Assembly (NCBI GenBank): GCA_963798485.1
Contig: CAWCTR010000007.1
Location: forward strand, 96,001 to 160,000
DNA: 64,000 nucleotides
Direction: 5' to 3'
From: an uncultured delta proteobacterium
GTDB lineage: Bacteria; Desulfobacterota; Desulfomonilia; UBA1062
Below are positions 2,364-62,650 of this stretch, piece after piece (positions within the stretch are counted from its first letter, which is position 1; each line of letters opens with the position of its first letter). Under the pieces are notes generated by a model that did not search any database, was not told the DNA's origin, and saw nothing but the letters and a program-made list of their open reading frames with translations. A program made the translations under genes and the position numbers.

Positions 2364-3596
2364 ATGCCCTATACCGAGTTGAATCTTGAAATGTCAGACG
2401 AGCACATCGCCCTGAAAGAAAATGCACACAAGTTCGCTGTGGAAGTCTTAAGGCCTGCGGCAATCGAGCTCGACACCATGACACCCGAGCAGGTCATTGC
2501 CAAGGGCTCCATCTACTGGGACTGTATGAAAAAGATGTATGAGAACGGCTATCACACCGTGCTCATCCCGGATGAGTACGGTGGATTGGGGGTCGATCCG
2601 CTGGGCATCCACATCGTGTTCGAGGAGATAGCCTACGGCAGCGCGGGATTCGCCGTGTCCATCGGTGTTGCCTGCTTTTCTGCCTTCTATGCATCTCTCA
2701 TTGCAGAGGACCACATCATCGATAAATTCATCCTGCCGTACGTGAACTGCAAAGATGCGAGCATCATGTCGTGCTGGGCCATCACCGAGCCGGACCACGG
2801 CTCGGACATCCTCATGCCCTTCACGGACAACTTCCACAACCCCAAGATCACCCAGCAGGTCAAGGCCACCAAAAAGGGGAACAAGTACCTTCTCAACGGC
2901 CAGAAGGCGGCCTGGGTGTCTAACGGGACAATAGCGACACAGGCGGCCCTGTTCGTCAACATCGACCCCTCCCAGGGCATGTCGGGCGGAGGCATCTGCC
3001 TTGTCGACCTCACTCAGCCGGGTGTCTCCCGGGGCAAGCCGCTCAACAAGATGGGCCAGCGGGAGCTGCCCCAGGGTGAGATCTTTTTCGACAATGCCGA
3101 AGTCCCCCTTGAAGACATGATCATCGACAATGAGAGCTATGAGATGTTCACGGACATCACGCTTGCCACGGCGAATGCCGGCATGGGCGCTTTTTTCACA
3201 GGGGTTGCCCAGTCGGCCTATGACATGGCCCTGGACTATTCCAAAGAGCGCATCCAGGGAGGCAAGAGGCTCTGCGACCACCCGACCGTGCAGAAGAAGC
3301 TCTTCGACATGTTCAGTAAGGTGGAGCTGTCCAGGGCATATTCAAGGGCGGCACTGATCTTCAACCTCTCCACGACACCGCCCAAGACCGAGTATTCCAT
3401 CGCCGCAAAGGTGTTTGCAACCCGATCCGCATTCGAGGTGGCCAGCGATGCCATGCAGATCTTCGGCGGAAACGGGCTTTCCAAGGAGTACCCCATCGAA
3501 AAGATCTTCAGGGACGCGAGGGCCGGCATGATCGAGGACGGTTCCAACGACATCCTTGCCCTGGCCGCAGCAGGCCTGATCCTGCGCGAAGAATAA
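2364..3596 (+). CDS. Acyl-CoA dehydrogenase
   Basis: WAITEPDHGSD, LNGQKAAWVSNG and QIFGGNG...FRDAR...IEDG motifs. Confidence 0.93.
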   Translation: MPYTELNLEMSDEHIALKENAHKFAVEVLRPAAIELDTMTPEQVIAKGSIYWDCMKKMYENGYHTVLIPDEYGGLGVDPLGIHIVFEEIAYGSAGFAVSIGVACFSAFYASLIAEDHIIDKFILPYVNCKDASIMSCWAITEPDHGSDILMPFTDNFHNPKITQQVKATKKGNKYLLNGQKAAWVSNGTIATQAALFVNIDPSQGMSGGGICLVDLTQPGVSRGKPLNKMGQRELPQGEIFFDNAEVPLEDMIIDNESYEMFTDITLATANAGMGAFFTGVAQSAYDMALDYSKERIQGGKRLCDHPTVQKKLFDMFSKVELSRAYSRAALIFNLSTTPPKTEYSIAAKVFATRSAFEVASDAMQIFGGNGLSKEYPIEKIFRDARAGMIEDGSNDILALAAAGLILREE

Positions 3597-3615
3597 CATC
3601 ATGGGAGACAAGAAT

Positions 3616-3656
3616 CCCCTCTCTCCCAGGGTGGGGGAGAGGGTCAGGGTGAGGGG
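3616..3656 (+). repeat. REP-like palindromic element (CCCTCTC..GGAGAGGG..GGGTGAGGGG)
   Basis: Intergenic hairpin followed by a G-rich tail; a related copy lies in the opposite orientation at 31150-31187. Confidence 0.65.
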
Positions 3657-3701
3657 TCCAATTTAAGGATCACAGCCATCTTGAATAAGGGAGAACATCA
3701 T

Positions 3702-4940
3702 ATGAGCGATGTATTCATAATCGGCACCGGAATGATCAGGTTCAACAAATACCCGGATGCCACTGTGCGCACCATGGCCCACGATGCCGTCAACCTGGTG
3801 CTCAAGGATGCCGGGCTCGAAAAGGGAGACATCCAGGCCGCCTATGTTTCCAACACCTTCTGGGGCATGTTCGGGGGCCAGCACTCCATCCGCGGCGAGG
3901 TCATGCTCTGGGACATGGGCATTGACCGCATACCCATCGTGAACTGCGAGAACGCCTGCGCCGGGGCATCAACAGCCTTATACCTAGGCTATACGGCAAT
4001 AAAGGCGGGCATGTTCGACGTGGTGCTCGCACTCGGCTCCGAGAAGATCACCAACGAGAACAAGGCCCTGTCGCTTAGCGCATACGCCACCTGCATGGAC
4101 GTGGAGAACTTTGCGGCGCACCTCAAGATGTTCGAAGAGCTGAGCAAGCGGTTCACGGTGAAGATGCCGGACGGACAGTCGCCCCCCGGCGAAGGCAGGA
4201 GCGTGTTCATGGATGCCTATGCCATGGGCGCCCGCTGGCACATGTCTACATTCGGCTCCACCCAGAGGCAGCTCGCAGTGATCTGCTCCAAGAACCACCT
4301 GCACGGGTCATTGAACCCGTTGGCCCAGTACCAGGGCACTATGAGCGTGGAAGAGGTCATGGCAGACAAACCGGTAGCATACCCCCTGACACGGGCCATG
4401 TGCGCACCCGTGGGTGACGGGGCAGCTGCCGCAATCCTTTGCTCGGAGAAATACCTCAAGAGGCTCAAGAACAAAAGACCCGTGCGTATTAAGGCCTCGG
4501 TCCTGGGCTCGGGCATGCACAGAGACATCGAGGGAACCGACATCGGCGAACGGCTTTCCAGGCAGGCATATGAGATGGCCGGTCTTGGCCCCAAGGACAT
4601 CCACTTAGCCGAGCTCCACGATGCCACCTCATACGGCGAGCTCCACCAGACCGAGGCCATGGGTTTCTGCAAGCTCGGCGAAGGCGGTATCTTTGCCGAG
4701 TCCGGCGCTACGACGCTGGGCGGCAGGCTGCCCATAAACACGAGCGGGGGACTGGAGTGCAGGGGCCACCCCATCGGCGCATCGGGTCTTGCCCAGATCC
4801 ATGAAGTCGTCACGCAGTTAAGGGGCGAGGCGGGCAAGCGACAGGCGGAAGGGGCCAAGATCGGGCTCACCGAGAACGGCGGCGGTAATCTCGGCGTGGA
4901 AGAAGCCTCCATGACCATACATATATTCGAGAAGGTTTGA
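3702..4940 (+). CDS. Thiolase family protein (SCP2/lipid-transfer type)
   Basis: ENACAGAS, ELHDA and INTSGG...GHPIGASG motifs; start ATG 3702 after AAGGGAG. Confidence 0.9.
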   Translation: MSDVFIIGTGMIRFNKYPDATVRTMAHDAVNLVLKDAGLEKGDIQAAYVSNTFWGMFGGQHSIRGEVMLWDMGIDRIPIVNCENACAGASTALYLGYTAIKAGMFDVVLALGSEKITNENKALSLSAYATCMDVENFAAHLKMFEELSKRFTVKMPDGQSPPGEGRSVFMDAYAMGARWHMSTFGSTQRQLAVICSKNHLHGSLNPLAQYQGTMSVEEVMADKPVAYPLTRAMCAPVGDGAAAAILCSEKYLKRLKNKRPVRIKASVLGSGMHRDIEGTDIGERLSRQAYEMAGLGPKDIHLAELHDATSYGELHQTEAMGFCKLGEGGIFAESGATTLGGRLPINTSGGLECRGHPIGASGLAQIHEVVTQLRGEAGKRQAEGAKIGLTENGGGNLGVEEASMTIHIFEKV

Positions 4941-4953
4941 TATCATCATCCTT

Positions 4954-4990
4954 AAGGGGCCCTGTCAGCATGGGGAGGGCCCCCTTTCTT
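4954..4990 (+). terminator. Hairpin with short U-tract between thiolase and epimerase
   Basis: AAGGGGCCCT...AGGGCCCCCTTTCTT. Confidence 0.4.
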
Positions 4991-5007
4991 GAAAGGAGGA
5001 TCATCCG

Positions 5008-5994
5008 GTGAAACGTGTCTTCATCACCGGGGTTTCGGGCTATTTCGGCTCGAAACTCGTGGAACATTTGGGCTGCAAGGAAGATATCGGCGAGATCATC
5101 GGTATCGACATTGCCCTGCCCAAAAGCCCCTCTGGCAAGCTCACTTTCATCCGGCACGACGTACGCTCGGACATGTATCCCCTGCTCAAGGGCAGGGATC
5201 TCGACTGGGCCATCCATGCCGCCTATATCCTGCCGCCCATCCACGACAAGGGACTCATGGAGGACATAAATATAAACGGCACGAAGAACTTCCTGTCGTC
5301 GTGCCTCAAGGCGGGCATACCCCAGCTCCTCCATTGCTCTTCCACCACGGCCTACGGGTTCTATCCGGACAATGACATACCGCTCACGGAAGAGAGCCCT
5401 TTGCGGGGGAATGCGGATTTCACCTATGCCAAGAACAAGCGGGAGCTTGAAGCGGTCTGCTTGCGGTTCCGGCAGGATCACCCTGAAGTAAGCCTCATTG
5501 TGATCAGGCCGTCTTTTGTTGCAGGGCCCGGGTTTGACAATCCTCTTGCCCGGCACCTGCAGAAAAAGATCGTGCTGATGCCAAGCAAAACCGCACCATT
5601 CCAGTATATTCATGAGAACGACCTGGTAGAAATCATGTATCTGCTGATGAAAAAAAAGAAGTCCGGGGCATACAACCTTGCTGCAGACGGCACCATGAGC
5701 TTTGAAGAGATGATTCGAATCATGGGCAACCGGATGCTCAAGCTGCCATACCCCCTCATATACATAATGAACAACCTCATGTGGATGTTGCATGTAAAAT
5801 TCATAACAGAATTCCCGAGCCCGGCACTCAACATGACGGTTTATCCATGGATAGCAAGCAACGGCAAGCTCAAGCGCGAGATCGGCTATGCCTTCAAGTA
5901 CACCACGCGAGAGGCCTTTGATGACTTTGCCAGGCATGTGAGGGAGAACAAGGCCTCAATGATCTCGCGCATCTTCTCTGTCTTTGCAAAGTGA
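5008..5994 (+). CDS. NAD-dependent epimerase/dehydratase (extended SDR)
   Basis: TGVSGYFG Rossmann motif and YAKNK catalytic motif. Confidence 0.85.
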   Translation: MKRVFITGVSGYFGSKLVEHLGCKEDIGEIIGIDIALPKSPSGKLTFIRHDVRSDMYPLLKGRDLDWAIHAAYILPPIHDKGLMEDININGTKNFLSSCLKAGIPQLLHCSSTTAYGFYPDNDIPLTEESPLRGNADFTYAKNKRELEAVCLRFRQDHPEVSLIVIRPSFVAGPGFDNPLARHLQKKIVLMPSKTAPFQYIHENDLVEIMYLLMKKKKSGAYNLAADGTMSFEEMIRIMGNRMLKLPYPLIYIMNNLMWMLHVKFITEFPSPALNMTVYPWIASNGKLKREIGYAFKYTTREAFDDFARHVRENKASMISRIFSVFAK

Positions 5995-6009
5995 ATAAGG
6001 AGGATTGCT

Positions 6010-6828
6010 ATGAGGCTTGATACGACCGGGAAAAAGGTTCTCATCACCGGGGCATCCATGGGTATCGGTCAAGGACTGTCCGTGTGTTTTGCACGTGACA
6101 AGGCGCACCTCTTTCTCACGGACCTGCCCTCGCAGAAGGAAGCGCTTGAAAAGTGGGCATCCAAACTGGAGTCGGACTATGGCATCAGGACCTGGACTTT
6201 CACAATGGACCTCACCGATCCCAAAGGGCCTGAGGCGCTCTATCACGAGGCCACAGCCAGGACAGAGGGAATTGATGTGCTGGTGAACAATGCAGGCATA
6301 TGCTCCTATGGGAAGTTTGACGAAATGGCAGTTGAACGCATAGAAAAAATGGTGCTGCTCAATTGCCTGGGTTACGCCAAGCTCATGCGGCTCTTTCTCC
6401 CCTCCATGATCGAGCGTGACAGCGGTGCCATTTTGAATGTGTCATCGGTTTCCGCCTTTCAGCCCCTGCCGTCGCTTGCCCTCTATGCAGCGACAAAGGC
6501 CTTCACCCAGTCGCTCACTGAAGGTGTTTCCGGGGACCTGCCCTGGAGATCCAAGGTCAAGGCGGCAACACTGAATCCTCCCTTTACCCGGACTGCCTTG
6601 ATAAATGATGCAGGTGTTCCGGAGGACTTCATCCCGTTCACTATATCCTTCAAGACCGTTGATGAAGTTGTGGAGATGGGCTATCATGCTTTCAAGAGCG
6701 GAAAGCTGTTCTATGTGCCCGGCTGGCAGAACAAGGTGCTTCATCTGGGTATTATGAAGCTGCTGCCCCGTAGGGCCGTGAATCTCATCGGCAGGCTTAC
6801 CATGAAGAGGTGGTCGGATTATCTGTAA
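6010..6828 (+). CDS. Short-chain dehydrogenase/reductase
   Basis: TGASMGIG, NNAG and YAATK motifs. Confidence 0.9.
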   Translation: MRLDTTGKKVLITGASMGIGQGLSVCFARDKAHLFLTDLPSQKEALEKWASKLESDYGIRTWTFTMDLTDPKGPEALYHEATARTEGIDVLVNNAGICSYGKFDEMAVERIEKMVLLNCLGYAKLMRLFLPSMIERDSGAILNVSSVSAFQPLPSLALYAATKAFTQSLTEGVSGDLPWRSKVKAATLNPPFTRTALINDAGVPEDFIPFTISFKTVDEVVEMGYHAFKSGKLFYVPGWQNKVLHLGIMKLLPRRAVNLIGRLTMKRWSDYL

Positions 6829-7028
6829 TATCTGCTGCGGTAATAAGTCAGTTGAGAAAGACTAGGGAAAGCGGTCCGGGTGCAAGCAGGCCGGGCTTAA
6901 TTCAGGCTCATTTTATCCTTTCATTTTCTACAGGATTTCGGTAAATACACTGCTTTCTTATAATAGCCGCATTTCGGCCGGGGCGGCGGCATAAGTTCGG
7001 GCAGAAAGACCCGTGAAAGGACGCACTG

Positions 7029-7913
7029 ATGGAACAGGCCATTCAAAGGGCAAAGGTCCTGGTGGAGGCCCTGCCCTACATCAGGGATTTCAGGGGCAAG
7101 AGGATCGTGGTCAAGTACGGCGGCCACGCCATGGTGGACCCTGAGCTGAAGAAGCTCTTTGCCCAGCAGATCATCCTGTTCCAATATATCGGTATCCAGG
7201 TAGTGGTGGTCCACGGAGGAGGCCCCCAGATCAGCTCGATGCTTTCGCAGATGGGCATCAAGTCCACCTTCATCGAGGGAAAACGCGTGACCGATGCCAA
7301 GACCATGGACGTGGTGGAGATGGTCCTGGCAGGCGGCATCAACAAGGAGATCGTGCACCTCATCAATTCGCAAGGCGGCAAGTCGGTGGGGCTTTCCGGC
7401 AAGGACGGCGGCCTTATCAAGGCCAGGAAACTCTATTCCTCCCGGAAGAAGCCCGACGGCACCGTGGTAAACGATCTGGATATGGGCCATGTGGGCGAGG
7501 TGGAAGAGATCAACACCGAGATCATCGATGCCGTGGAAAAGGCCGGGTTCGTGGCCGTCATCGCCCCTTCAGGAGTGGGCGACGACGGGCTCACCTACAA
7601 CATCAACGCCGACACCGTGGCGGCAGGAATTGCAAGCCAACTGGGCGTGGAAAAGCTTATCATCTTAACCGACGAGGCGGGCGTGCTCGACAAAAAGGGC
7701 AAGCTTGTCTCCAACCTTAAATATGCAGAGATCCCGGGGCTCATGAAAAAGGGCGTGGTCACCGGAGGCATGATCCCCAAACTGGAGTGCTGCATGAAGG
7801 CCCTGGATAACGGGGTTATGAAGGCCCATATCGTGGACGGCCGTGTCCCCTATTCCATCCTGCTGGAGCTCTTTACCGACTCCGGCATAGGCACCCAGAT
7901 CGTTAAGGAGTAA
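7029..7913 (+). CDS. argB: Acetylglutamate kinase
   Basis: VVKYGGHAM, VHGGGPQI, YNINAD, GGMIPK. Confidence 0.97.
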   Translation: MEQAIQRAKVLVEALPYIRDFRGKRIVVKYGGHAMVDPELKKLFAQQIILFQYIGIQVVVVHGGGPQISSMLSQMGIKSTFIEGKRVTDAKTMDVVEMVLAGGINKEIVHLINSQGGKSVGLSGKDGGLIKARKLYSSRKKPDGTVVNDLDMGHVGEVEEINTEIIDAVEKAGFVAVIAPSGVGDDGLTYNINADTVAAGIASQLGVEKLIILTDEAGVLDKKGKLVSNLKYAEIPGLMKKGVVTGGMIPKLECCMKALDNGVMKAHIVDGRVPYSILLELFTDSGIGTQIVKE

Positions 7914-27180: not shown

Positions 27181-27759
27181 TTAGTCCGGCAATCCTGCAT
27201 CGACCTCATCACGCAACTTCTTCAAGTTCACTGCGAGCATGCGCGTCCACTCTCCCTCGCCGATCAGGCCACGATTCGAAGAAATCAGGTCCTCGAAGGT
27301 CACCTTTTCACTCTGCTCCTTTTTTAGGAGCTTGGCTCCCACAACAGACAAGGTCATGGTCGGTGTCAACAGCTTTACTTCAGGGAACTTCGGATCATCG
27401 TGAAACACGATGCAGAGGATATCCCCGGCCTCCATCAAGCTCTCTTCAGAAGCAGCTTCTTCTTCAGATTTTTCAATGGGGCGACCCTTATCATCGCCCA
27501 GAATGAAATATCTCCGGGGGACAGCGTAAACCTGAGACAGCGATGCCGCGTATGATCTCGATATTCCCAAGTCCAGCAACCGCCTGAACAGTTCAACAGC
27601 GTAGACATCGCCGCGCGTAAAGATGCCCCGGCTACCCTGGCCTTTGGCCGGGGTGTTCGGCGTGACAAACCCAAGCCTTATCCATTGGCGCAGCCTCTCG
27701 GGCTCAATATTCAACGCCTTGGCGACATGGCTTGATGAAAATTCATTGCGCTTATCCAT
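27181..27759 (-). CDS. MerR-type HTH DNA-binding protein
   Basis: VAKALNIEPERLRQWIRLGFVTP...GQGSRGIFT winged-helix pattern. Confidence 0.7.
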   Translation of the reverse strand: MDKRNEFSSSHVAKALNIEPERLRQWIRLGFVTPNTPAKGQGSRGIFTRGDVYAVELFRRLLDLGISRSYAASLSQVYAVPRRYFILGDDKGRPIEKSEEEAASEESLMEAGDILCIVFHDDPKFPEVKLLTPTMTLSVVGAKLLKKEQSEKVTFEDLISSNRGLIGEGEWTRMLAVNLKKLRDEVDAGLPD

Positions 27760-27770
27760 ATTTCCCTCAT

Positions 27771-27946
27771 GTTACTTTCTTTGCTTGCCCAAAGAAAGTA
27801 ACCAAAGAAAAGGCACCCCGCGAAACAGCCCCTTCGGGGTTCACTGCGGTGCTCGGGAAAATCCTGAAGCAAGCCAACTCGCTTCGCTCAAACATGGGCT
27901 TGCTTCTTTACGGATTTTCCCTGCGCTCCTCGCCTGTTTCGAGGGG
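27771..27946 (+). repeat. ~176-bp multi-stem intergenic element, copy 1
   Basis: Terminal hairpin GTTACTTTCTTTG..CAAAGAAAGTAAC plus nested stems; diverged inverted homologue at 30912-31093. Confidence 0.85.
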
Positions 27947-27979
27947 CCAAAAACCTGAGCAGCAAAAGCAAACCATCAA

Positions 27980-28059
27980 CTATTACTTTGTCCCACGGGC
28001 AAGCCCTTCGGGCTTAGCCCGTGCCACCCACGAATTTTATATATCTCTTCCAGGCCACC
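27980..28059. repeat. ~80-bp REP-like hairpin element, copy A
   Basis: CACGGGCAAGCCCTTCGGGCTTAGCCCGTGCCACCCA; direct repeat at 29121-29198. Confidence 0.85.
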
Positions 28060-28184
28060 TGACCGGTCGGGTTAACCAACATATATAATAGATCAATGTC
28101 TGGCACCGGTCAATATCGTGAACATTCCATAGTATGGAGACCATGGTGCCATCTTCGAGCGCTTGTTCGCCAAATCTATTCCGT

Positions 28185-28448
28185 CTATTCGTAATGAGTC
28201 CACATACGGATGACCTTTACTGCATTCATGTCATCCAGAATCTGGTACACCAGCCGGTGCTGGATATTTATCCTTCGGGAACATGCCCCTGATAGGTCTC
28301 CCAACAGTTTCTCATATGGCGGCGGGCTCTGGTAGGGATCTTCTTTGAGGAGCTCGAGCAGGCGTTGGGTTTGAGGTTTCAGGCCGGAGCGTGCGATCTT
28401 CTTAGCGTCTTTCTTGGCCTGTTTGGTGAAAATCAACCGCCAGGTCAC
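28185..28448 (-). CDS. yoeB: Txe/YoeB family toxin
   Basis: PPPYEKLLGDLSGACSRRINIQHRLVY...MWTHY. Confidence 0.93.
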   Translation of the reverse strand: MTWRLIFTKQAKKDAKKIARSGLKPQTQRLLELLKEDPYQSPPPYEKLLGDLSGACSRRINIQHRLVYQILDDMNAVKVIRMWTHYE

Positions 28449-28687
28449 CAGTCAATATCCTCTTCGCACTCCTCGATAGGGGTCTTAAGTCCCTCCTGGA
28501 TAGATTCGCGCATGCCGGGTATTGATGTGAGGTACAAGGTCTCCTGGATTGCACGCCAGTCTTCTTCAGAAACGAGGACTGCAGAATTCCTCTTCCCCAC
28601 TATTTGAACCGGCTCATGTGATTCTTTTACCTCATCGACAAGGCTATACAGGCGTTTCCTTGCTTGGGTTGCGGTGAGTGTCGGCAT
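28445..28687 (-). CDS. yefM: Phd/YefM family antitoxin
   Basis: TATQARKRLYSLVDEV...VLVSEEDWRAIQETLYL; 4-nt overlap with the toxin; AGGAGG RBS. Confidence 0.93.
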   Translation of the reverse strand: MPTLTATQARKRLYSLVDEVKESHEPVQIVGKRNSAVLVSEEDWRAIQETLYLTSIPGMRESIQEGLKTPIEECEEDIDW

Positions 28688-28705
28688 AGTTCCCAACCTC
28701 CTTTT

Positions 28706-28744
28706 CGTACGTCATATCGTACGCCCAGAGGCGGCTCATGTCAA
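28706..28744 (-). promoter_or_regulatory. Sigma70 promoter and probable autoregulatory operator of the TA module
   Basis: TTGACA (28744-28739), 17-bp spacer, TACGAT (28721-28716); two CGTACG palindromes at 28706-28711 and 28718-28723. Confidence 0.8.
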
Positions 28745-28754
28745 GATCTTTGAA

Positions 28755-28818
28755 GGCGAACGTCATGGATCAGCCGCGTGGGCAATAGCCCGCTCCCGAC
28801 AGGATGGGCTGGTTAGGC
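28755..28818 (-). mobile_element. Degenerate integron attC site
   Basis: Minus strand: GCCTAAC-5nt-CATCCTG...GCGGCTGATC-6nt-GTTCGCC, directly after the stop of an AT-rich ORF remnant. Confidence 0.65.
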
Positions 28819-28828
28819 ATAAACGTCT

Positions 28829-29100
28829 TCATTCATTAATCGCACCTGACCTTATTTTTCCGATGGTTAGTGGCTTTTGATAATATCTTTCTTTATTCTT
28901 AATACAAATTAGGCCGAAGCCTCTGCCTTTTGTGCCCATCAGACTTAATCGCCTTAATTCATTTATTGACCCTGAAACTATTATTCTATTTTCATAACAA
29001 TTCAATATCAATCATATCTATTAATAAATTGGTTTTATCTGGGAATAAGATTAATCTTCCAAAACACATCCTCTGATCAAGTTAACCAATAAATAGAAAC
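28829..29100 (-). pseudogene. 3' remnant of an AT-rich cassette ORF
   Basis: Markedly AT-rich; frame ends (TGA at 28829) 10 bp before the attC; no convincing start. Confidence 0.4.
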
Positions 29101-29120
29101 GTTCCTTTTTCTCTTTTTAC

Positions 29121-29198
29121 CTATTACTTCGTCCCACGGGCAAGCCCTTCGGGCTTCGCCCGTGCCACCCAGGGATTTTGTATCTTATCCAAGCCACC
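29121..29198. repeat. ~80-bp REP-like hairpin element, copy B
   Basis: Near-identical core to 27980-28059. Confidence 0.85.
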
Positions 29199-29200
29199 CG

Positions 29201-29620
29201 CGCGAGGGGCGAGTTCTTGCATCTTTTCAGGATGCTTAGCGAGGTATACGGTAAGCTCTTCGTTTACACTTGAGAAATCGGTAATGAGTGAAGGGGCTAT
29301 CGCTTCCTCATGGCGACTTTACATTAGCGGGAAGATATCGGCGAGTGGTACGTACTTCGTGTATCCTTGCGCGTCATGTTGATTAGTGTAGGGATAGTAA
29401 ACGATCCCCTTGGCTTTCTTATGCCTTTGGCGTGGCGCTCATTCTCGTCTTGTGATCAGCGCACAGAAACGGGCATGTGAAGTTCCTGTTCAAAGAATTC
29501 GTGCTTGTCGTGCAGGTAATAGTCATAGAGATACACCTCATACTCCGGTCTTTGTCCACATCTAAGAACAGTGCACAACGTATCTGTTTGGTATTGTATA
29601 TATCTCTTCGGAACCCTCAT
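29201..29620 (-). pseudogene. Broken cassette gene, probably an N-terminal domain leading into an Mrr-like restriction endonuclease
   Basis: Pieces in shifting frames: MRVPKRY...EYEVYLYDYY..EFFEQ / FTCPFLCADH / ENERHAKGIRKPRG / VYYPYTNQHDAQGYTKY..LM* then SLITDFSSVNEELTVYLAKHPEKMQELAPR, cut off by repeat copy B. Confidence 0.55.
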
Positions 29621-29630
29621 TCTGTAATCA

Positions 29631-29695
29631 TGCGAACACTCCACATCACCGGGAGGCCAGCTTTATGGCCGATGCGGTGCATGCAGTGGTTATAG
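29631..29695 (-). mobile_element. Integron attC site
   Basis: Minus strand: CTATAAC-5nt-CATGCAC-CG..GGCCA(TAAAGC)TGGCC..CG-GTGATG-6nt-GTTCGCA; the L boxes pair with one extrahelical base; 14 bp after the stop of 29710-30426. Confidence 0.8.
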
Positions 29696-29709
29696 AAATC
29701 ATTCGTCGT

Positions 29710-30426
29710 TCATTCATCCGGGTATTTCACTCGGAAATAGCCGATTAACGGGAAATACGTCGTGTTTATGTTCCTAAGGCTGATAATTTGCAGAGGAGCT
29801 ATTTTTTGTAAAGTACCTATTCCCACCGGTGCCATTGTGTCGTTGCCAGGAGATGCCAAGATAAAACCAAAACTCCCTACCTGCCCTTTGAAAAAGGCTA
29901 GATCTCCAGGTAATGGTTTATCAGTCATCTCGAAAGATCTCATCATCGTATCAGAGAGTCTTTCTCCCGGAACAGTCTGTATCCTTACCCCTACTTTCTC
30001 AAGCACGTACTTGAGGAATCTGGGCGAATCAAACCCTAAACCAAGCTGGCTGCTACCCAGTGTAAATGGAATATCCTTCCACGCAAGTAGGGTTGCAGCC
30101 AAGACCGCATCTTTGCGTTTTCCTGCAGGCATCTCAATGATTCTTTGTTTAACTTTCGGCCAGTCCACGCTCGGGTCTATTATACTGATGTTATCCTGGC
30201 CGGTCACTGAGCCCAAGAAATCCAAGAGAGAGCTTTGAGTGCTGGATAAGCTGAGTATTTTTTCACTGAGTTCTCTTACCGTCTTTTGTTTGTTCGCCAA
30301 AGTATTTTCAAGTCTATGTAATTCATACGCCGAATATCCCAATGCAGCAAATACGATCAGGACACCCAGTAATGACAGTGAGGCATTACGGAGTGACGCT
30401 TTCCTTAAGGCTTCAACTGATTTCAC
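29710..30426 (-). CDS. Membrane-anchored protein with a degenerate NlpC/P60-like domain
   Basis: TM helix + coiled coil + IPFTLG...GFDSPRFLKYV...PGDLAFF (canonical PYxWGG..GFDCSG..PGDLVFF). Confidence 0.65.
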   Translation of the reverse strand: MKSVEALRKASLRNASLSLLGVLIVFAALGYSAYELHRLENTLANKQKTVRELSEKILSLSSTQSSLLDFLGSVTGQDNISIIDPSVDWPKVKQRIIEMPAGKRKDAVLAATLLAWKDIPFTLGSSQLGLGFDSPRFLKYVLEKVGVRIQTVPGERLSDTMMRSFEMTDKPLPGDLAFFKGQVGSFGFILASPGNDTMAPVGIGTLQKIAPLQIISLRNINTTYFPLIGYFRVKYPDE

Positions 30427-30725
30427 TATTTCTTATCCTCCTTATCAGTTGAAGGGATCAAACGTTTCAGCGCTTCATTCCACATGTACAGAAGTCTCCC
30501 GGTAGAATAAGTGATGAGGCCTGAAGAACCAAACGACAGGGACAATTCGGCGTAACCGCCTCGGTCCCTGAAGAACAAAAACATGGTACTGCTAATCAAT
30601 ATAATGAGAGACAAGATGCAGATGCCCATATATACCATTCGTTCGAACTTAAACAGTTCGGTCAGCTGCCTGACTACTTCCATCCGCTCTTTAATGTCGT
30701 CTGGCATTCTACCTCTCAGTCTCAA
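30426..30725 (-). CDS. Small two-TM membrane protein
   Basis: Two hydrophobic segments; its TAG overlaps the GTG start of the next gene; start could be ATG 30707. Confidence 0.6.
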   Translation of the reverse strand: MRLRGRMPDDIKERMEVVRQLTELFKFERMVYMGICILSLIILISSTMFLFFRDRGGYAELSLSFGSSGLITYSTGRLLYMWNEALKRLIPSTDKEDKK

Positions 30726-30830
30726 TTACATAATTACTATACTGCACTTTTGTAGTACATCACCATTGTTATCTGAAGCACAATTGCAGTATATCCTGAT
30801 ATTGAGTGCAAGGTATTATTCTGTTTATAT

Positions 30831-30859
30831 ATTATACCAGATATCACTTTCCGCACCAA
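30831..30859 (-). promoter_or_regulatory. Sigma70 promoter pointing into the cassette array
   Basis: TTGGTG-17bp-TATAAT with extended -10 (TGGTATAAT). Confidence 0.6.
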
Positions 30860-30911
30860 TCCCCTCAGTTATTGCAAAAATCTTGGTCAGCTCTCGTTTT
30901 TTACTTTTAAT

Positions 30912-31093
30912 CCCCTCTGAACCCGGTGAGCGAGTGAAGGAAAATTCAGGGGAAAAGCGGCCCATGTCTGAGCGGAGTGAAACGGAGCGAGTTGGCCGCG
31001 GCCTGAATTTTCCGAACGAGCGAACGCACCCGAAGGGCGGGTTCATGGGGTGCCTTTTCTTTGGTACTTTCTTTTGGCACCAAAAGAAAGTAC
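30912..31093 (-). repeat. ~182-bp multi-stem intergenic element, copy 2 (inverted relative to copy 1)
   Basis: Shares GGGGTGCCTTTTCTTTGG(T)TACTTTCTTT..GGCA..CAAA(A)GAAAGTA and CATGT.TGAGCG..AGCGAGTTGG with the reverse complement of 27771-27946. Confidence 0.85.
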
Positions 31094-31149
31094 ATAAATA
31101 AACGCTTGGTTACACTTTACTCCACCCACCATACATCCTCTATGATAGA

Positions 31150-31187
31150 CCCCATCCCCACCCCGGCCCTCCCCTTGAAGGGGAGGG
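31150..31187 (-). repeat. REP-like element related to 3616-3656
   Basis: Reverse complement reads CCCTCCCCTTCAAGGGGAGGGCCGGGGTGGGGATGGGG. Confidence 0.6.
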
Positions 31188-31278
31188 GTGAGATCGCCCC
31201 GCTCAAGTGATTTTTGAAAAAACATGGATTCCTCCCTTCTGCGTGAATGACGCAACCGGGGTCTCTCTTTTTAATCCT

Positions 31279-31310
31279 GGCCCGGCCATTACGGCCGGGC
31301 CTTATTTTTT
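31279..31310. terminator. GC-rich hairpin downstream of gyrA
   Basis: GGCCCGGCC-ATTAC-GGCCGGGCC; the T-run (TTATTTTTT) follows on the + strand. Confidence 0.65.
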
Positions 31311-31336
31311 AGGTATTCTCGTGATGAGACGCCTGT

Positions 31337-33763
31337 TTACTCGGCGTCCTCTTCGCTGATGTATTTGGTGAAGTCCACGATCTTCTCATCTTCCTTCATG
31401 CGTATGGCGCGCACGCCCTGGGCCGAGCGCGTCCTGGTGGTGCGGATCTGGGACACGGGCATGCGGATGATCTGGCCCGAGGTGGAGATGATCATGAGCT
31501 CGTCGGTCTCCTTGATAACCCTCACGCCCACCAGGTCACCGGTCTTCTTGGTGATGTGGACCGTGTTTACGCCCTTGCCGGCCCGGTTCTGGACCGGATA
31601 CTTGCCGACGACCGTCTTCTTGCCGAAGCCGTACTCGGTGAGGTTGATGACCATGTCGTCGTCGCTGGTGATGACATCCATGCCGATGACCGAATCGCCC
31701 TCGTCGAGCCTGATGGCCCGCACCCCTTGGGCCTGGCGGCCCATGACGCGGACCTGGTCGGCCGGGAAGATGATGGCCTTGCCGCCCTTGGATGCAACAA
31801 TGATGCGGGTGCTGCCTATGGTGATGCGGGCCGACATGACCTCGTCGCCCGGCTCCAGCGTGCAGGCGATGATGCCGGTGCGCACGATGTTGCTGAAACT
31901 CTTGAGCTCGACCCGTTTGATGTTGGCCATGGCGGTTACCATCACGACCTCGGCCTCCATGTTGATGTCGGTGGTGACCAGGATGGCGCAGATGCGCTCC
32001 TCTTTCTGGATGGGCCTGATGTTCACGATGGGCACGCCCTTGAGCGCGCGGTCGCGCTCCGGGATCTCGTAGACCTTGGTGTGGTAGACCCGCCCCTTGT
32101 TGGTGAAGTAGAGTATGGAGGTGTGGTTGGTGGCCACGAAGATGTGCTCGATGAAGTCGTCCTCGCCGGTCAACGCCCCTTTGACGCCCACACCGCCCCG
32201 CTTCTGGGTGCGGTACTTGTCGAGTTCGGTGCGCTTCACATAGCCCTTGCGGGTGATGGTGACCACCATCTTCTCATCGGGGATGAGGTCTTCCATGTTG
32301 AATTCGCCGATCTCGCCCTTCAGGATCAGGGTCCGCCTGGGGTCCGAGTAGTCGGCCTTGACCTCTTCCAGCTCTTTCCTGATGACATTGAGCAGCTCTT
32401 TGCGGTCGGAAAGGATGAGCTCGAGCCGCCTGATCTCTTTGGTAAGTGCCGCGTGCTCATCGGCGAGCTTGTCGCGTTCCAGCCCGGTGAGCCTCTGGAG
32501 GCGCATGTCCAAGATGGCCTGGGCCTGAATCTCGGAGAAGCCGAAGCGCTCCATCAGGTTTATCTTTGCCTCGGGCGGGTTGGCAGATGCCTTGATGAGG
32601 GCCACAATCTCGTCGATGTGTTCTAAGGCCTTCAAGAGGCCGTCCAAGATGTGTATGCGGTCCTTTGCCTTGGCCAGTTCGAAGATGCACCTGCGGGTGA
32701 CCACCTCCTCGCGGAAATCAAGGAAGGCCTGAAGCAGCTGCAAAAGACCCATGGTGGCGGGCCGGTTGTTGTGGATGGCGAGCAGGTTCATAGAGAACGA
32801 GGTCTGGAGCGTGGTGAGCTTGTAGAGCTGGTTCTCGATGACGTCCAGCGGGGCACCCTTCTTCAGATCGATAACCACGCGCATGCCGTCCTTGTCAGAC
32901 TCGTCGCGGATGTTGGCGATGCCGTCAATCTTCTTTTCCTGGGCCAAGAGGGCGATGCGCGTGACGAGATCGGCCTTGTTCACGGTAAAGGGGATCTCGG
33001 AGATGATGATCTTCTCCCGGTTCTGCTCTTCCTCCCTTTCCACCTTGCCGCGCACAACGATGATGCCCCTGCCGGTGCGGTAGGCCTTCTCGATCTCGCC
33101 TTCGGAAATGATGATGCCGCCGGTGGGGAAATCAGGGCCGGGGATGATCTTCATGACCTCTTGCAGGGTCAGATCGGGCCTGTCCACCAGGGCGATCAGT
33201 GCGGTCATCAGCTCGGTGGCATTGTGCGGCGGGATGCTGGTGGCCATACCCACCGCTATGCCACTAGACCCGTTCAGCAGCAGCCCCGGTATCCTCGTGG
33301 GCAGGACATCGGGTTCCTGCAGGGATTCGTCGTAGTTGGGGTGGAAATCTACGGTATTCTTTTCAAGGTCGGCGAGCATCTCCTCGGCGATGCGCGACAT
33401 CCTGATCTCGGTATACCTCATGGCAGCGGCCGGATCGCCGTCCACGCTCCCGAAGTTGCCCTGGCCGTCGACCAGGGGATAGCGCAGCGAGAACGGCTGG
33501 GCCATTCGGACGATGGCGTCATAGACCGCCTGGTCGCCATGGGGATGATATTTACCGATGACGTCACCCACGATGCGGGCGGACTTCTTGTAGGCCTTGG
33601 TGTGGGTGTTGCCCAGGTCCTGCATGGCAAACAGTATCCTTCTGTGGACGGGCTTGAGACCGTCACGCACATCAGGGATGGCGCGTCCGATGATGACGCT
33701 CATGGAATAGTCCAGGTACGAGCGCCTCATCTCCTGGTCTATGGCAACAGTGTTCGTACTCAT
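31337..33763 (-). CDS. gyrA: DNA gyrase subunit A
   Basis: [23 protein letters not shown], GyrA-box QKRGGVG. Confidence 0.97.
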
Positions 33764-41918: not shown

Positions 41919-41991
41919 GCGGGCATAGCTCAGTTGGTAGAGTGTCAGCTTCCCAAGCTGAATGTCGCGGGTTCGAATCCCGTTGCCCGCT
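41919..41991 (+). tRNA. tRNA-Gly(CCC)
   Basis: GCGGGCA/TGCCCGC acceptor stem, anticodon loop TTCCCAA, GGTTCGAATCC T-arm; CCA not encoded. Confidence 0.95.
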
Positions 41992-62577: not shown

Positions 62578-62650
62578 GGGCCCATAGCTCAATTGGTAGA
62601 GCCACCGGCTCATAACCGGTAGGTCCCTGGTTCGATTCCAGGTGGGCCCA
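62578..62650 (+). tRNA. tRNA with CAT anticodon, most likely tRNA-Ile2 (lysidine-modified)
   Basis: GGGCCCA/TGGGCCC acceptor, ACCGG-CTCATAA-CCGGT anticodon arm; paired G1-C72, so not initiator; CCA not encoded. Confidence 0.9.

Follow-up and report, generated by a model that had tools for sequence, protein, structure and literature searches.

Two inverted copies of one approximately 185-nt element, termed here copy A and copy B, bracket an island of accessory genes beside gyrA in the window, the 64,000-nt stretch of DNA analysed in this study. We found that the element is a multi-copy, strand-specifically folded and patchily distributed repeat of which A and B are two subtypes and, judged by alignment, that it is related to the extended TwoAYGGAY family of structured RNAs but lacks the AYGGAY motif. 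In the reading that best joins these observations, to which we give a probability of about one half, the element acts as an RNA, carries a triple helix that protects its 3' end, has spread in the manner of a mobile element and provides bookends for cargo. The features of the region are as follows.

27181 to 27759, minus strand: MerR-type HTH gene in the flank (PF13411, 2.8e-7)
27770 to 27949, minus strand: copy A, subtype 2, with outer stem GAAACAG/CTGUUUC and short apex UGAGCGAAGCGAGUU
27950 to 30909, no strand: variable cargo between the heads of the copies, with unrelated DNA at the same site in genomes G002 and G003
27980 to 28042, plus strand: D1 hairpin repeat adjoining the head of copy A, a direct repeat 92% identical to its second copy
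28185 to 28448, minus strand: YoeB/ParE-like toxin (Pfam PF06769, 3.7e-9; PF05016, 5e-8)
28445 to 28696, minus strand: Phd/YefM antitoxin (Pfam PF02604, 6.9e-18)
29121 to 29183, plus strand: second D1 hairpin, a direct repeat in mid-island
29710 to 30725, minus strand: cargo, a 238-aa ORF and a 99-aa ORF with two TM segments
30910 to 31095, plus strand: copy B, subtype 1, with outer stem UGAACCCG/CGGGUUCA and a longer apex with GAGUGAAACGGAG insert
31167 to 31188, plus strand: REP-like hairpin CCCTCCCCTTGAAGGGGAGGGG, 71 nt past the tail of copy B
31337 to 33763, minus strand: gyrA, a conserved core gene in the flank (PF00521, 1.4e-165)

A covariance model built from the family (R1) matched both window copies at full length (copy A, 160.3 bits over 1-188; copy B, 214.9 bits), and the two are 70% identical by BLAST. 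The first-pass annotation had located the copies correctly at 27771-27946 and 30912-31093, and the model shifted these bounds to those given above. The three stems it described as differing in letters between the copies are present where it placed them, as are the side hairpin CCC(C)GAAGGG(G), the conserved loop CATGT.TGAGCG...CGAGTT, the tail GGGGTGCCTTTTCTTTGG with its terminal TACTTTCTTT/AAAGAAAGTA hairpin, and an internal loop with two purine-rich, near-repeated sides. With the tail placed 3', each copy is predicted to form a long bulged hairpin closed by CCCC/GGGG, plus a side hairpin, followed by an H-type pseudoknot. The predicted folds reach -88.8 kcal/mol for copy A (z -6.5) and -78.8 kcal/mol for copy B (z -4.8), values equalled by 0 of 200 shuffles in each case. 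The proposal that selection acts on a folded single strand was borne out in 45 family copies: 27 of 48 pairs differ on both sides (expectation 14.9; matched by 0 of 500 shuffles), pairing holds in 96.0% of cells versus 87.0% in shuffles, and sliding the partners out of register in the family alignment lowers it to at most 56%. Wobble pairs of the G-U/U-G kind exceed A-C/C-A in the family (114 vs 25), which identifies the strand whose 3' end carries the tail as the folded one.

The tail can be divided into the following parts.

31049 to 31093, plus strand: tail of copy B, defined by its sequence and, across the family, by parallel H/R register and x:x' covariation
31049 to 31054, plus strand: copy B pseudoknot strand x, GGUGCC
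31055 to 31062, plus strand: copy B third strand H, UUUUCUUU
31067 to 31075, plus strand: copy B Y, CUUUCUUUU
31076 to 31081, plus strand: copy B x', GGCACC
31082 to 31090, plus strand: copy B purine strand R, AAAAGAAAG
27772 to 27819, minus strand: tail of copy A, defined by its sequence
27812 to 27819, minus strand: copy A GGGGUGCC
27804 to 27811, minus strand: copy A H
27790 to 27798, minus strand: copy A Y
27784 to 27789, minus strand: copy A loop GGCAAG
27775 to 27783, minus strand: copy A R, CAAAGAAAG

Comparison of tails indicates an H-type pseudoknot with its U-rich strand in parallel register to the purine strand, an arrangement that appears to be new. At least four contiguous Watson-Crick pairs join x and x' in 131 of 159 distinct tails, with a mean of 4.31 pairs versus 3.11 with shuffled partners across 49 sequence types. 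H matches R in parallel only in 86 of the 159, in antiparallel only in 1, in either in 62 and in neither in 10; the corresponding counts for 32 tails outside the collection scan pattern were 22, 1, 5 and 4. The C of H shifts together with the G of R across the classes AAAGAAAA, AAAAGAAA, AAGAAAA, AAAGAAAAA and AAGAAA, is doubled in AAGAGAAA/UUCUCUUU and is absent in AAAAA/UUUUU. Since the core UUUCUUU/AAAGAAA is invariant in 62 tails, much of this signal consists of run lengths and about a dozen variant classes with interrelated members. Such a parallel register marks a major-groove triple helix, and the tail looks like a three-stranded RNA helix: the first pseudoknot loop, H (UUUUCUUU), would occupy the major groove of the terminal helix, forming some 7-9 U.A-U and C+.G-C triples. 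A REP-like hairpin lies within 200 nt past the tail in 3 of the 12 source-genome copies, compared with 0.011 per kb genome-wide, and ahead of the head in 0 of 12. G.T wobbles and a pyrimidine-motif triplex are also compatible with folded single-stranded DNA.

H-type pseudoknots with major-groove U.A-U triples occur in telomerase RNA, SAM-II/SAM-V and preQ1-II, and 3'-end-protecting triple helices in the PAN ENE, MALAT1 and the ENEs of plant and fungal transposons. The tail resembles these in its U-rich first loop parallel to the stem 2 purine strand with an embedded C+.G-C, and in its position at the element's 3' end. It also belongs to a proliferating repeat, as do the ENEs of eukaryotic transposons in the part of PMC13541005 drawn on here. 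It differs from them in that the module is wholly intramolecular (x-H-loop-Y-x'-loop-R) and has no poly(A) partner, and in that the family is bacterial and multi-copy, with a decay protection that is putative. We read the element as acting as an RNA, which presumes its transcription. Its compact triple-helical 3' module may resist 3'-to-5' exonucleases, in analogy to the ENE/MALAT1 helices. Transcripts running out of the island on either side would then be shortened as far as the module and stabilised by it, leaving a stable structured RNA. A promoter scan revealed no promoter-like site ahead of copy B, and a sense-strand terminator-like hairpin lies within 350 nt past the tail in only 3 of 40 copies.

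The first-pass annotation had assigned the element to no named family. This holds for RF01731 itself, which misses both window copies at E values as high as 10, but the element is, by its alignment, homologous to extended TwoAYGGAY (RF01731), and a named relative therefore removes part of the novelty, as the annotation had foreseen. R1 aligns over 1-188 to loci also matched by RF01731 (L111 607-805, L168 3687-3897, L102 and L124), where the distant loci scored were selected by tail pattern and about 30 bits of their score come from the tail alone (e.g. L101, 81 nt, 31.6 bits). TwoAYGGAY elements have been described as pseudoknotted repeats with many copies, a tendency towards divergent doublets and large copy-number swings between close relatives (Li et al., bioRxiv 10.64898/2026.09.22.753630, Sept 2026). 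As far as the portion of that preprint used here goes, in both this family and the extended TwoAYGGAY of Pseudomonadota CCCC/GGGG closes a long basal stem whose 3' strand bears a hairpin, and a terminal hairpin accompanies the 3' pseudoknot. Both are present many times per genome, in numbers that vary widely among close relatives; divergent doublets are over-represented (68.4% for TwoAYGGAY, 18/21 here), and REP-type repeats follow the 3' end. On the same basis they also differ: here a single apex, whose conserved loop reads YUGUYUGAGCG...CGAGUU, stands in for the AYGGAY hairpins, the 5' GMTBT(T) repeats show no enrichment (0.62 vs 0.65 per 100 nt), and doublet gaps are gene-bearing and span 341-6648 bp, against a TwoAYGGAY median of 249 bp.

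The window copies are real and are not a private pair: the source genome holds 12 copies, and the element is carried by 12 of 61 related genomes and 5 of 14 other genomes of the genus. The same tail was found in Pseudomonadota, Thermodesulfobacteriota, Fusobacteriota and others, the tail letters of copy A recur in Ilyobacter polytropus pILYOP01, and the single-apex form extends beyond Pseudomonadota to Desulfuromonadales, Desulfurivibrionaceae, Elusimicrobia and Fusobacteriota. Empty-site alleles, which the annotation had suggested seeking in relatives, exist: two loci are occupied in some genomes and empty in others. Truncated copies also occur, as do copies with an insert in the terminal hairpin. 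We read the family as having spread like a non-autonomous mobile repeat, probably in most cases as tails-out doublets.

Among 21 neighbouring pairs in the genus, which represent about 10-11 independent loci (three of them orthologous in three genomes each), 18 are divergent with tails out, 3 tandem and 0 convergent. Tails-out pairs enclose 0.3-6.6 kb, and their cargo differs at shared sites. The island in the window lies just past the 3' end of gyrA, whose orthologues are 77-98% identical in 5 of 5 congeners searched. The idea that the inverted pair delimits a variable insert held up in three genomes that share this site: between the same bracketing copies lie a YoeB/YefM pair in the source genome, TIR-TM in G002 (PADLOC, 221 bits) and DUF4145 in G003, and what the islands have in common is limited to the D1 hairpin and 80-260 bp next to the heads; for interiors in general the shared stretch at the heads was 80-240 bp. 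D1 has 4 copies in the genome, one of which neighbours a different element copy, approximately 85 nt from its head. The 238-aa and 99-aa ORFs gave no Pfam match above curated cut-offs (sub-threshold NLPC_P60, 17.9 bits, cut-off 23; CyanoTRADDas_TM, 18.4 bits, cut-off 24.3) and no PADLOC match. Because PADLOC matches 4 of 29 interior ORFs, one alone strongly, the cargo is only partly defence-like; Pfam matched none of 15 out of 27 interior ORFs. Tails-out copies enclosing differing cargo at shared sites, as in this genus, appear to be new, and the two conserved copies may serve as bookends, probably by acting as homology arms for the exchange of accessory and defence cargo between them.

Toxin-antitoxin and defence-like genes flanked by inverted sites are known from Acinetobacter pdif modules, and the small genes between inverted sites seen here recall dif-type modules. 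As in MITEs, REPINs and dif-type modules, the copies encode no protein, are numerous and patchily distributed, and show inverted pairs, nested insertions and empty-site alleles. A DNA-level explanation is the strongest competitor, although we consider it unlikely. Under it, a composite or non-autonomous MITE-like transposon has the copies as its approximately 190-bp terminal inverted repeats and is moved by a transposase or recombinase in trans, with hairpins and triplex forming in single-stranded or supercoiled DNA. The outward tails of 18 of 21 pairs, the polymorphic sites, the patchy distribution, a sharp flank junction 10-14 nt past the terminal hairpin and an H-DNA-type mirror repeat in the tail would all fit, and mobile-element-like expansion is suspected for TwoAYGGAY too (10.64898/2026.09.22.753630, in the part consulted). 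However, we found no mobilising enzyme and, for the family, neither a cognate transposase or RAYT nor an Xer-type core site; no transposase recurs in the interiors (an IS256-type gene lies in 1 of 14, next to other genes), and comparison of two loci showed no target-site duplication. Nothing supports the ssDNA-type (HUH) element suggested earlier, as 34 of 41 family genomes have Y1 transposase genes irrespective of whether the element is present. Moreover, the arms are different subtypes, more divergent than expected of one protein-binding end pair, and each has a conserved three-dimensional RNA-type fold that MITEs, REPINs and dif modules lack; selection keeps intramolecular pairing, pseudoknot and three-strand register on one strand.

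Triple-helix pseudoknots also occur in guide RNAs of Cas12/TnpB-type enzymes, and telomerase RNA has one next to its functional end. An RNA partner of a trans-encoded protein, either a SINE-like retro-mobile RNA with a 3' pseudoknot recognised by a reverse transcriptase or a guide-type scaffold that works with a nuclease or recombinase and reads into flanking DNA at its 3' end, is nevertheless improbable. In every copy the structured 3' module lies directly against the flank, in a doublet both flanks are covered, and one island holds nested group II introns with reverse transcriptases. Judged by gene neighbourhood alone, however, these introns aside, no reverse transcriptase, TnpB/IscB or IS110-type gene lies by the copies in 14 interiors, and no A-tail was seen.

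A Csr/Rsm-type protein sponge, as proposed for AYGGAY-bearing relatives, is quite improbable for this element, even though RF01731 shares Rfam clan CL00106 with CsrC and RsmY, the source genome encodes CsrA and the subtype-1 apex contains two CGGAG words. The AYGGAY word is absent from both window copies, the subtype-2 apex contains no GGA, and scaffold and tail, not GGA loops, are conserved across phyla. That AYGGAY loops bind Csr/Rsm is a proposal cited in the discussion of the TwoAYGGAY preprint (10.64898/2026.09.22.753630).

That the element is a cis-acting signal for nearby genes is very improbable, whether as leader or riboswitch for the MerR-type gene or as terminator or insulator bordering the island: copy A does stop 5 nt ahead of that gene's ribosome-binding site and tails-out geometry puts a sense copy after any interior gene, but copy B has no gene downstream, the G003 MerR orthologue is 566 bp away from its copy, copies lie in many unrelated contexts, and U-rich before and A-rich after the terminal hairpin is the reverse of an intrinsic terminator. 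A terminator scan gave no site at the terminal hairpin of either copy; its sole match inside a copy was at 27886-27899, on the antisense strand in the apex of copy A.

The two inverted elements in the window are not a private pair: a BLAST search with copy B found about a dozen copies of two subtypes in the window's own 4.3-Mb draft genome. R1, a covariance model built from 45 copies in this genome and its relatives, matched the genome 12 times and set the bounds of the window copies as follows.

Window 27770-27949, minus strand: copy A, subtype 2.
Window 30910-31095, plus strand: copy B, subtype 1.

Comparison of 27771-27946 (reverse strand) with 30912-31093 in the sequence confirmed that both have the same architecture with different stem letters. 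The outer, second and inner stems, the CCC(C)-GAA-GGG(G) side hairpin, the loop CAUGU.UGAGCG...CGAGUU, the tail GGGGUGCCUUUUCUUUGG and the terminal hairpin were present in each, and each folded far better than its dinucleotide shuffles (z-scores of -4.8 and -6.5; 0 of 200 shuffles equal for either copy). The compensatory change proposed from these two copies was borne out in a MAFFT alignment of 45 copies, where both sides vary in 27 of 48 pairs (14.9 expected), in 3 of 3 pairs of the side hairpin and in 3 of 4 pairs of helix 9, the x:x' pseudoknot of the tail. In the same alignment, paired cells reached 96.0% compared to 87.0% after shuffling, none of 500 shuffles attained any of five measures, and pairing fell to 56% or less when the partners were shifted by 1-3 columns. 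Because G-U and U-G pairs outnumber A-C and C-A pairs in the family by 114 to 25, the strand that folds is the one with CCCC...GGGG followed by the tail. Together with those in the tail, these substitutions show, at the level of sequence, a fold that is specific to one strand and includes a pseudoknot and a third strand in parallel register.

The tail, at the 3' end of the element, consists of these strands in 5' to 3' order.

x: GGUGCC.
H: UUUUCUUU, followed by a 4-5-nt loop.
Y: CUUUCUUUU.
x': GGCACC.
R: AAAAGAAAG.

Y and R form the terminal hairpin, and x' in its loop pairs with x. At least 4 contiguous Watson-Crick pairs between x and x' were found in 131 of 159 distinct tails compared to 33% for shuffled partners, and the mean number of pairs was 4.31 versus 3.11 for shuffles (49 sequence types; top of 300 shuffle means, 3.26). 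This arrangement makes the tail a predicted H-type pseudoknot with H as loop 1, whose path would have to lead across the major groove of the helix formed by Y and R. Since H mirrors Y and does not repeat it directly, it runs parallel to R, with U facing A and C facing G. A first, simpler score for a third strand found 37 parallel and 34 antiparallel cases and hence no signal, since its purine run reached into the outer stem; a core-run parse replaced it. By this parse, H and R matched in parallel register only in 86 of the 159 distinct tails and in antiparallel register only in 1, with 62 (symmetric cores) matching in both and 10 in neither; since the members of each R-core class are related to each other, the independent events are nearer a dozen than 86. 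Among 32 tails that were not selected by the scan pattern, the corresponding counts were 22, 1, 5 and 4, the last four being stray matches elsewhere in the genome.

The register is kept over R cores as different as AAAGAAAA (45 tails), AAAAGAAA (11), AAGAAAA (5), AAGAGAAA with H UUCUCUUU (5), AAAAAGAAA (3), AAAGAAAAA (3), AAGAAA (2), AAAGAGAA, AAAAGA and AAAAGAA. Both two-C and no-C variants of H retain it, and in the loci L105 (2865-3044) and L175 (4148-4325) C, C and G are jointly exchanged for U, U and A. This is the pattern that a pyrimidine-motif major-groove triple helix of about 7-9 triples would predict; neither a protein-binding repeat nor an alternative H:R duplex would predict a parallel H/R register. 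The triplex pseudoknots of telomerase, SAM-II and ENE-kind elements have the same parallel pyrimidine third strand as the one predicted here from sequence, with C against G-C and U against A-U.

According to the sections consulted of a 2026 review (PMC13541005), bacterial RNA triple helices comprise riboswitches and group II introns, and triple helices that protect 3' ends come only from eukaryotes, their viruses and eukaryotic transposons. No bacterial repeat with a triple helix was found in the portions of the literature that our search covered. A long major-groove triple helix with three-strand covariation in a 3' pseudoknot, as the tails suggest, would provide a simple and mutable bacterial model, because C+.G-C can be swapped for U.A-U. 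In two copies, L007 (G000:C4:416055-416232, in the window's genome G000) and L065:2602-2860, the terminal hairpin is interrupted where Y meets the loop; the insert there measures ~75-95 nt and is itself repeated in G000 and in the related genomes G002 and G003. On its opposite strand, both copies of this insert carry the AYGGAY-like hairpins GGCC-AUGGAU-GGCC and UUCGGC-AGGAUA-GCCGAA; it has no Rfam match, the best being RsmY (E 0.45) and CsrC (E 0.63).

Weinberg et al. 2010 (PMC2864571) listed TwoAYGGAY (Rfam RF01731) as probably an RNA, with no role known, and it has been an orphan motif since 2010. A preprint of September 2026 (10.64898/2026.09.22.753630) describes it in its main text as a large multi-copy, doublet-forming element, which in Pseudomonadota has an elongated basal stem, three further hairpins and a 3' pseudoknot, with GMTBT(T) repeats on the 5' side and REP arrays at a fixed downstream place. 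Its copy-number medians are 11-23 with a maximum of 202, and its doublets are in excess, with 68.4% (2,164/3,166) divergent and a median gap of 249 bp. The same text suggests that the RNA may sponge Csr/Rsm proteins and that its expansion resembles that of a mobile element, without settling on a function. It does not contain the word triplex, and, judged by it, neither the covariation of three strands in the tail nor the doublets described below, which carry genes at shared hot spots, seem to have been published; the supplements may bear on both.

The present family shares with extended TwoAYGGAY the long basal stem whose 3' strand carries a hairpin (helices 1-5 and 8), the 3' pseudoknot with a terminal hairpin, a multi-copy state whose number differs among close relatives, and an excess of divergent doublets (18/21). 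The window copies differ from RF01731 in model match and loop words, and the family differs from the extended form in its upstream sequence. At the gathering score (43 bits) RF01731 has no match in the whole window, for which Rfam gives two tRNAs only, and it is absent among 17 weak Rfam matches to window 27500-31400 at E up to 10. The word AYGGAY occurs in 0 of 2 window copies. ACGGAY is found once each in 12 of the 45 family copies, at positions 90-117 in a GAACGGA context outside the terminal loop, and 9 of these 12 read GCGAACGGACCC; the family apex is a single loop, as against the two adjacent AYGGAY hairpins of TwoAYGGAY. GMTBT(T) arrays are not enriched upstream (0.62 per 100 nt for 48 copies versus 0.65 for 5000 random genome windows), and the last 30 nt before the copies are T-rich (37% T versus 25% genome-wide).

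At many gammaproteobacterial loci the apex is formed by two hairpins with CAUGGAUG loops, and Rfam gives the name TwoAYGGAY. RF01731 scored 47.8 bits at L168 and 46.2 and 45.1 bits at L111, the match of 45.1 bits spanning the whole model, and fell slightly below the 43-bit cut-off at L102 and L124. R1 aligned over its full length (1-188) to all four of these loci (L168 3687-3897, 61.3 bits; L111 607-805, 51.6 bits; L124, 49.4 bits; L102, 46.5 bits). The first-pass annotation could not assign the element to a named family; the window copies themselves lack an Rfam match, but a named relative exists, as R1 extends over RF01731-positive loci. The element is a lineage-specific, AYGGAY-less branch of the family described in the preprint and is not categorically new; the conserved core of the wider family would be the scaffold and tail, with an exchangeable apex. 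REP-like hairpins after the tails recall the REP arrays downstream of TwoAYGGAY in P. fluorescens SBW25: in the window's genome 3 of 12 copies have one in the 200 nt beyond the tail and 0 of 12 before the head (the 5' end), which is an enrichment over the genome-wide 0.011 per kb but not a constant trait. Hairpins of the type CCCTCYCC-N4-GGRGAGGG lie at window 31167-31188 and at L060 ~1880-1920 and ~3395-3435, and REP-like hairpins flank the insert in G003 at both ends in inverted orientation.

R1 (E up to 1e-6) matched 12 of 61 related genomes, among them 11 of 36 in the same family and 0 of 24 in the sister family. Within the genus, 5 of 14 other genomes were positive, with 0 to 20 matches per genome, and these counts are lower bounds in draft genomes because several copies sit at contig ends. 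A scan for the tail pattern in one genome per species gave at least 122 loci. Among the loci listed, most were from Pseudomonadota (Dyella, Xanthomonas, Pseudomonas, Stutzerimonas, Aeromonas, Haemophilus, Lonepinella, Methylomonas, Kangiella and others), and the remainder included Thermodesulfobacteriota, Desulfuromonadales, Elusimicrobia, Bdellovibrionales, one Cryomorphaceae and one Latescibacterota genome. Single-apex elements matched by R1 occur in Desulfuromonadales (L114, 98 bits), Desulfurivibrionaceae (L122, 88 bits), Sulfuricaulis, a betaproteobacterial genome, Noviherbaspirillum, Lonepinella and Haemophilus, all scoring above AYGGAY-type loci, and the fusobacterium Ilyobacter polytropus (50.7 bits) has tail letters identical to those of copy A; these distant loci were selected by the tail pattern, and the tail alone contributes ~30 bits of an R1 score (L101, 81 nt, 31.6 bits). 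The AYGGAY loops are dispensable, and the core of scaffold and tail extends well outside Pseudomonadota. On plasmids, we found tail-length matches only, on megaplasmids or chromids and none on mobilisable plasmids, and the whole collection of viral contigs gave 2 tail matches, ~200 bp and ~2.4 kb from the contig end. Two copies in the window's genome (G000:C11:15155-15331 and G000:C15:5783-5961) have in common an upstream flank of at least 70 nt and a downstream gene (98% identity over 1.9 kb), so that either the segment was recently duplicated or the assembly broke at the repeat.

Pairing of the copies is strongly oriented. Among 85 strong matches (at least 94 bits) in 9 genomes there were 21 neighbouring pairs no more than 10 kb apart, and 18 of these were divergent, with heads facing and tails out, 3 tandem and 0 convergent; gaps ranged from 341 to 6648 bp, and the pairs represent ~10-11 independent loci because three loci are orthologous in three genomes each. 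That the inverted pair delimits an insert of ~3 kb, as the first-pass annotation had suspected, is supported by the gyrA 3' site, where cargo differs between conserved copies in G000, G002 and G003. At this site a YoeB/YefM pair lies beside two ORFs with no assignment in the window's genome, whereas G002 has a TIR-TM protein (PADLOC 221 bits; Pfam TIR_2) and a 371-aa ORF, and G003 a DUF4145 protein. Other interiors encode DUF4062, DUF4365, HIRAN, HSDR_N, GIY-YIG and HNH-repeat proteins, an IS256-type transposase and two group II introns. PADLOC matched 4 of 29 interior ORFs, one of them strongly, and 15 of 27 had no Pfam match; "defence-like" cargo is thus a tendency and not a rule. Doublets can hold genes, with cargo differing among close relatives at the same site, and an RNA family so far without a known role is thereby connected with turnover among defence and toxin-antitoxin cargo. 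The two group II introns carry reverse-transcriptase/maturase ORFs and sit inside the doublet cargo of L069 (G000:C7:259900-271100) at 3077-7268; they match RF02005 (144 bits) and RF02012 (91 bits), and near-identical further copies stand elsewhere in the genome.

The interiors are mutually unrelated except for 80-240 bp beside the heads and a small hairpin repeat, D1, with the core CACGGGCAAGCCC-TTCG-GGGCTTAGCCCGTG.

Window 27980-28042: D1, 63 nt, adjoining the head of copy A.
Window 29121-29183: D1, 63 nt, mid-island.

D1 has 4 copies in the genome. One at C7:268694-268739 lies ~85 nt from the head of another element copy, homologous pieces stand beside heads in G002 and G003, and the repeat could mark cassette borders. 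Another reading considered has the island as two cassettes, with a D1 hairpin at the start of each.

Empty-site alleles were seen in relatives at two loci. A tRNA-adjacent locus is occupied in G000, G002 and G003 with differing cargo, and in G007 the insert is absent, the sequence reading 68 bp where 7.3 kb stands elsewhere; by coordinates only, the site is also short in G011, G008, G006, G010, G014, G012, G001 and G005. At the second locus, a 1.65-kb doublet of G003:C17 is missing from G000, where its flanks abut. The tail-side junction is sharp, lying 10-14 nt beyond the hairpin. These results and the pair orientations demonstrate that the element proliferates and is lost between close relatives and that it pairs tails out. 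Three further sites were rejected as clean empty sites: at gyrA, the thioesterase-gyrA gap of G007 holds ~900 bp of unrelated AT-rich DNA with neither the MerR gene nor the element and gives no junction, and at both the other end of the C30 tRNA-side island and the C4 copy synteny with G007 stops at the element.

Presence/absence polymorphism at orthologous sites is what transposon ends acting at the DNA level would leave, and folded single-stranded DNA would give the same G.T bias and the same triplex register. We nevertheless consider this explanation unlikely, since other traits of transposon ends were not found. No target-site duplication was found at the tRNA or the G003:C17 locus, both of which are blurred by extra repeats outside the tails, and no transposase recurred among 14 interiors. 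Transposase profiling covered Y1_Tnp, and the Y1/HUH transposase was rejected as mobiliser, since 34 of 41 family genomes have it, element-less ones among them, and it was not found in the carriers G017 and G033.

Our combined reading, to which we give a probability of roughly 0.5, is that the element is transcribed, that its triple-helical 3' module blocks exonucleases and that its copies serve as homology arms. A transcript leaving a doublet would end in protected, structured RNA, the module would stop exonucleases that work 3' to 5', and the conserved copies would act as arms in the exchange of cargo. It counts against this reading that promoter and terminator scans gave no promoter or terminator that defines a transcription unit, and that folded single-stranded DNA would leave the G.T bias and triplex register noted above as well. 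A strong intrinsic-terminator-like hairpin, GGCCCGGCC-ATTAC-GGCCGGGCC followed by TTATTTTTT, stands at window 31279-31310 (plus strand), 183 nt past copy B, and might end a transcript running through that copy; upstream of it there is no plus-strand ORF, and Rfam sRNA matches are sub-threshold (suhB/mmgR 24.7 bits). Should the RNA be unexpressed, there would still be a clearly delimited new subfamily of repeats, at which assemblies break and which marks variable islands.

A broader proposal is possible, and we hold it more tentatively than the combined reading. It sees a cross-phylum superfamily of mobile structured RNAs defined by their scaffold and not by AYGGAY loops. The scaffold would end in an intramolecular U.A-U/C+.G-C helix of 7-9 triples, a bacterial counterpart of ENE/MALAT1-type 3'-end protection, and the apical modules, either two AYGGAY hairpins or a single UGAGCG...CGAGUU loop, would be interchangeable. 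Tails-out doublets would serve as portable bookends between which defence and toxin-antitoxin cassettes are swapped across genomes and loci, without a dedicated recombinase.

It seems to us improbable that the element is an RNA working with a trans-encoded reverse transcriptase, nuclease or recombinase. Still more doubtful is a Csr/Rsm sponge: CsrA is encoded in the window's genome, so that its presence does not discriminate, GGA is missing from the subtype-2 apex, and the dispensable AYGGAY loops weaken any purely sponge-based reading. A cis-regulatory leader or terminator is the least credible of all, as each copy has its own context and the sequences on either side of the terminal hairpin are in the reverse order for a terminator.

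Elsewhere in the window, the tRNA genes at 41919-41991 and 62578-62650 have equal Rfam scores (72.8 bits) and lie 20.7 kb apart, and may represent a duplicated gene or segment.
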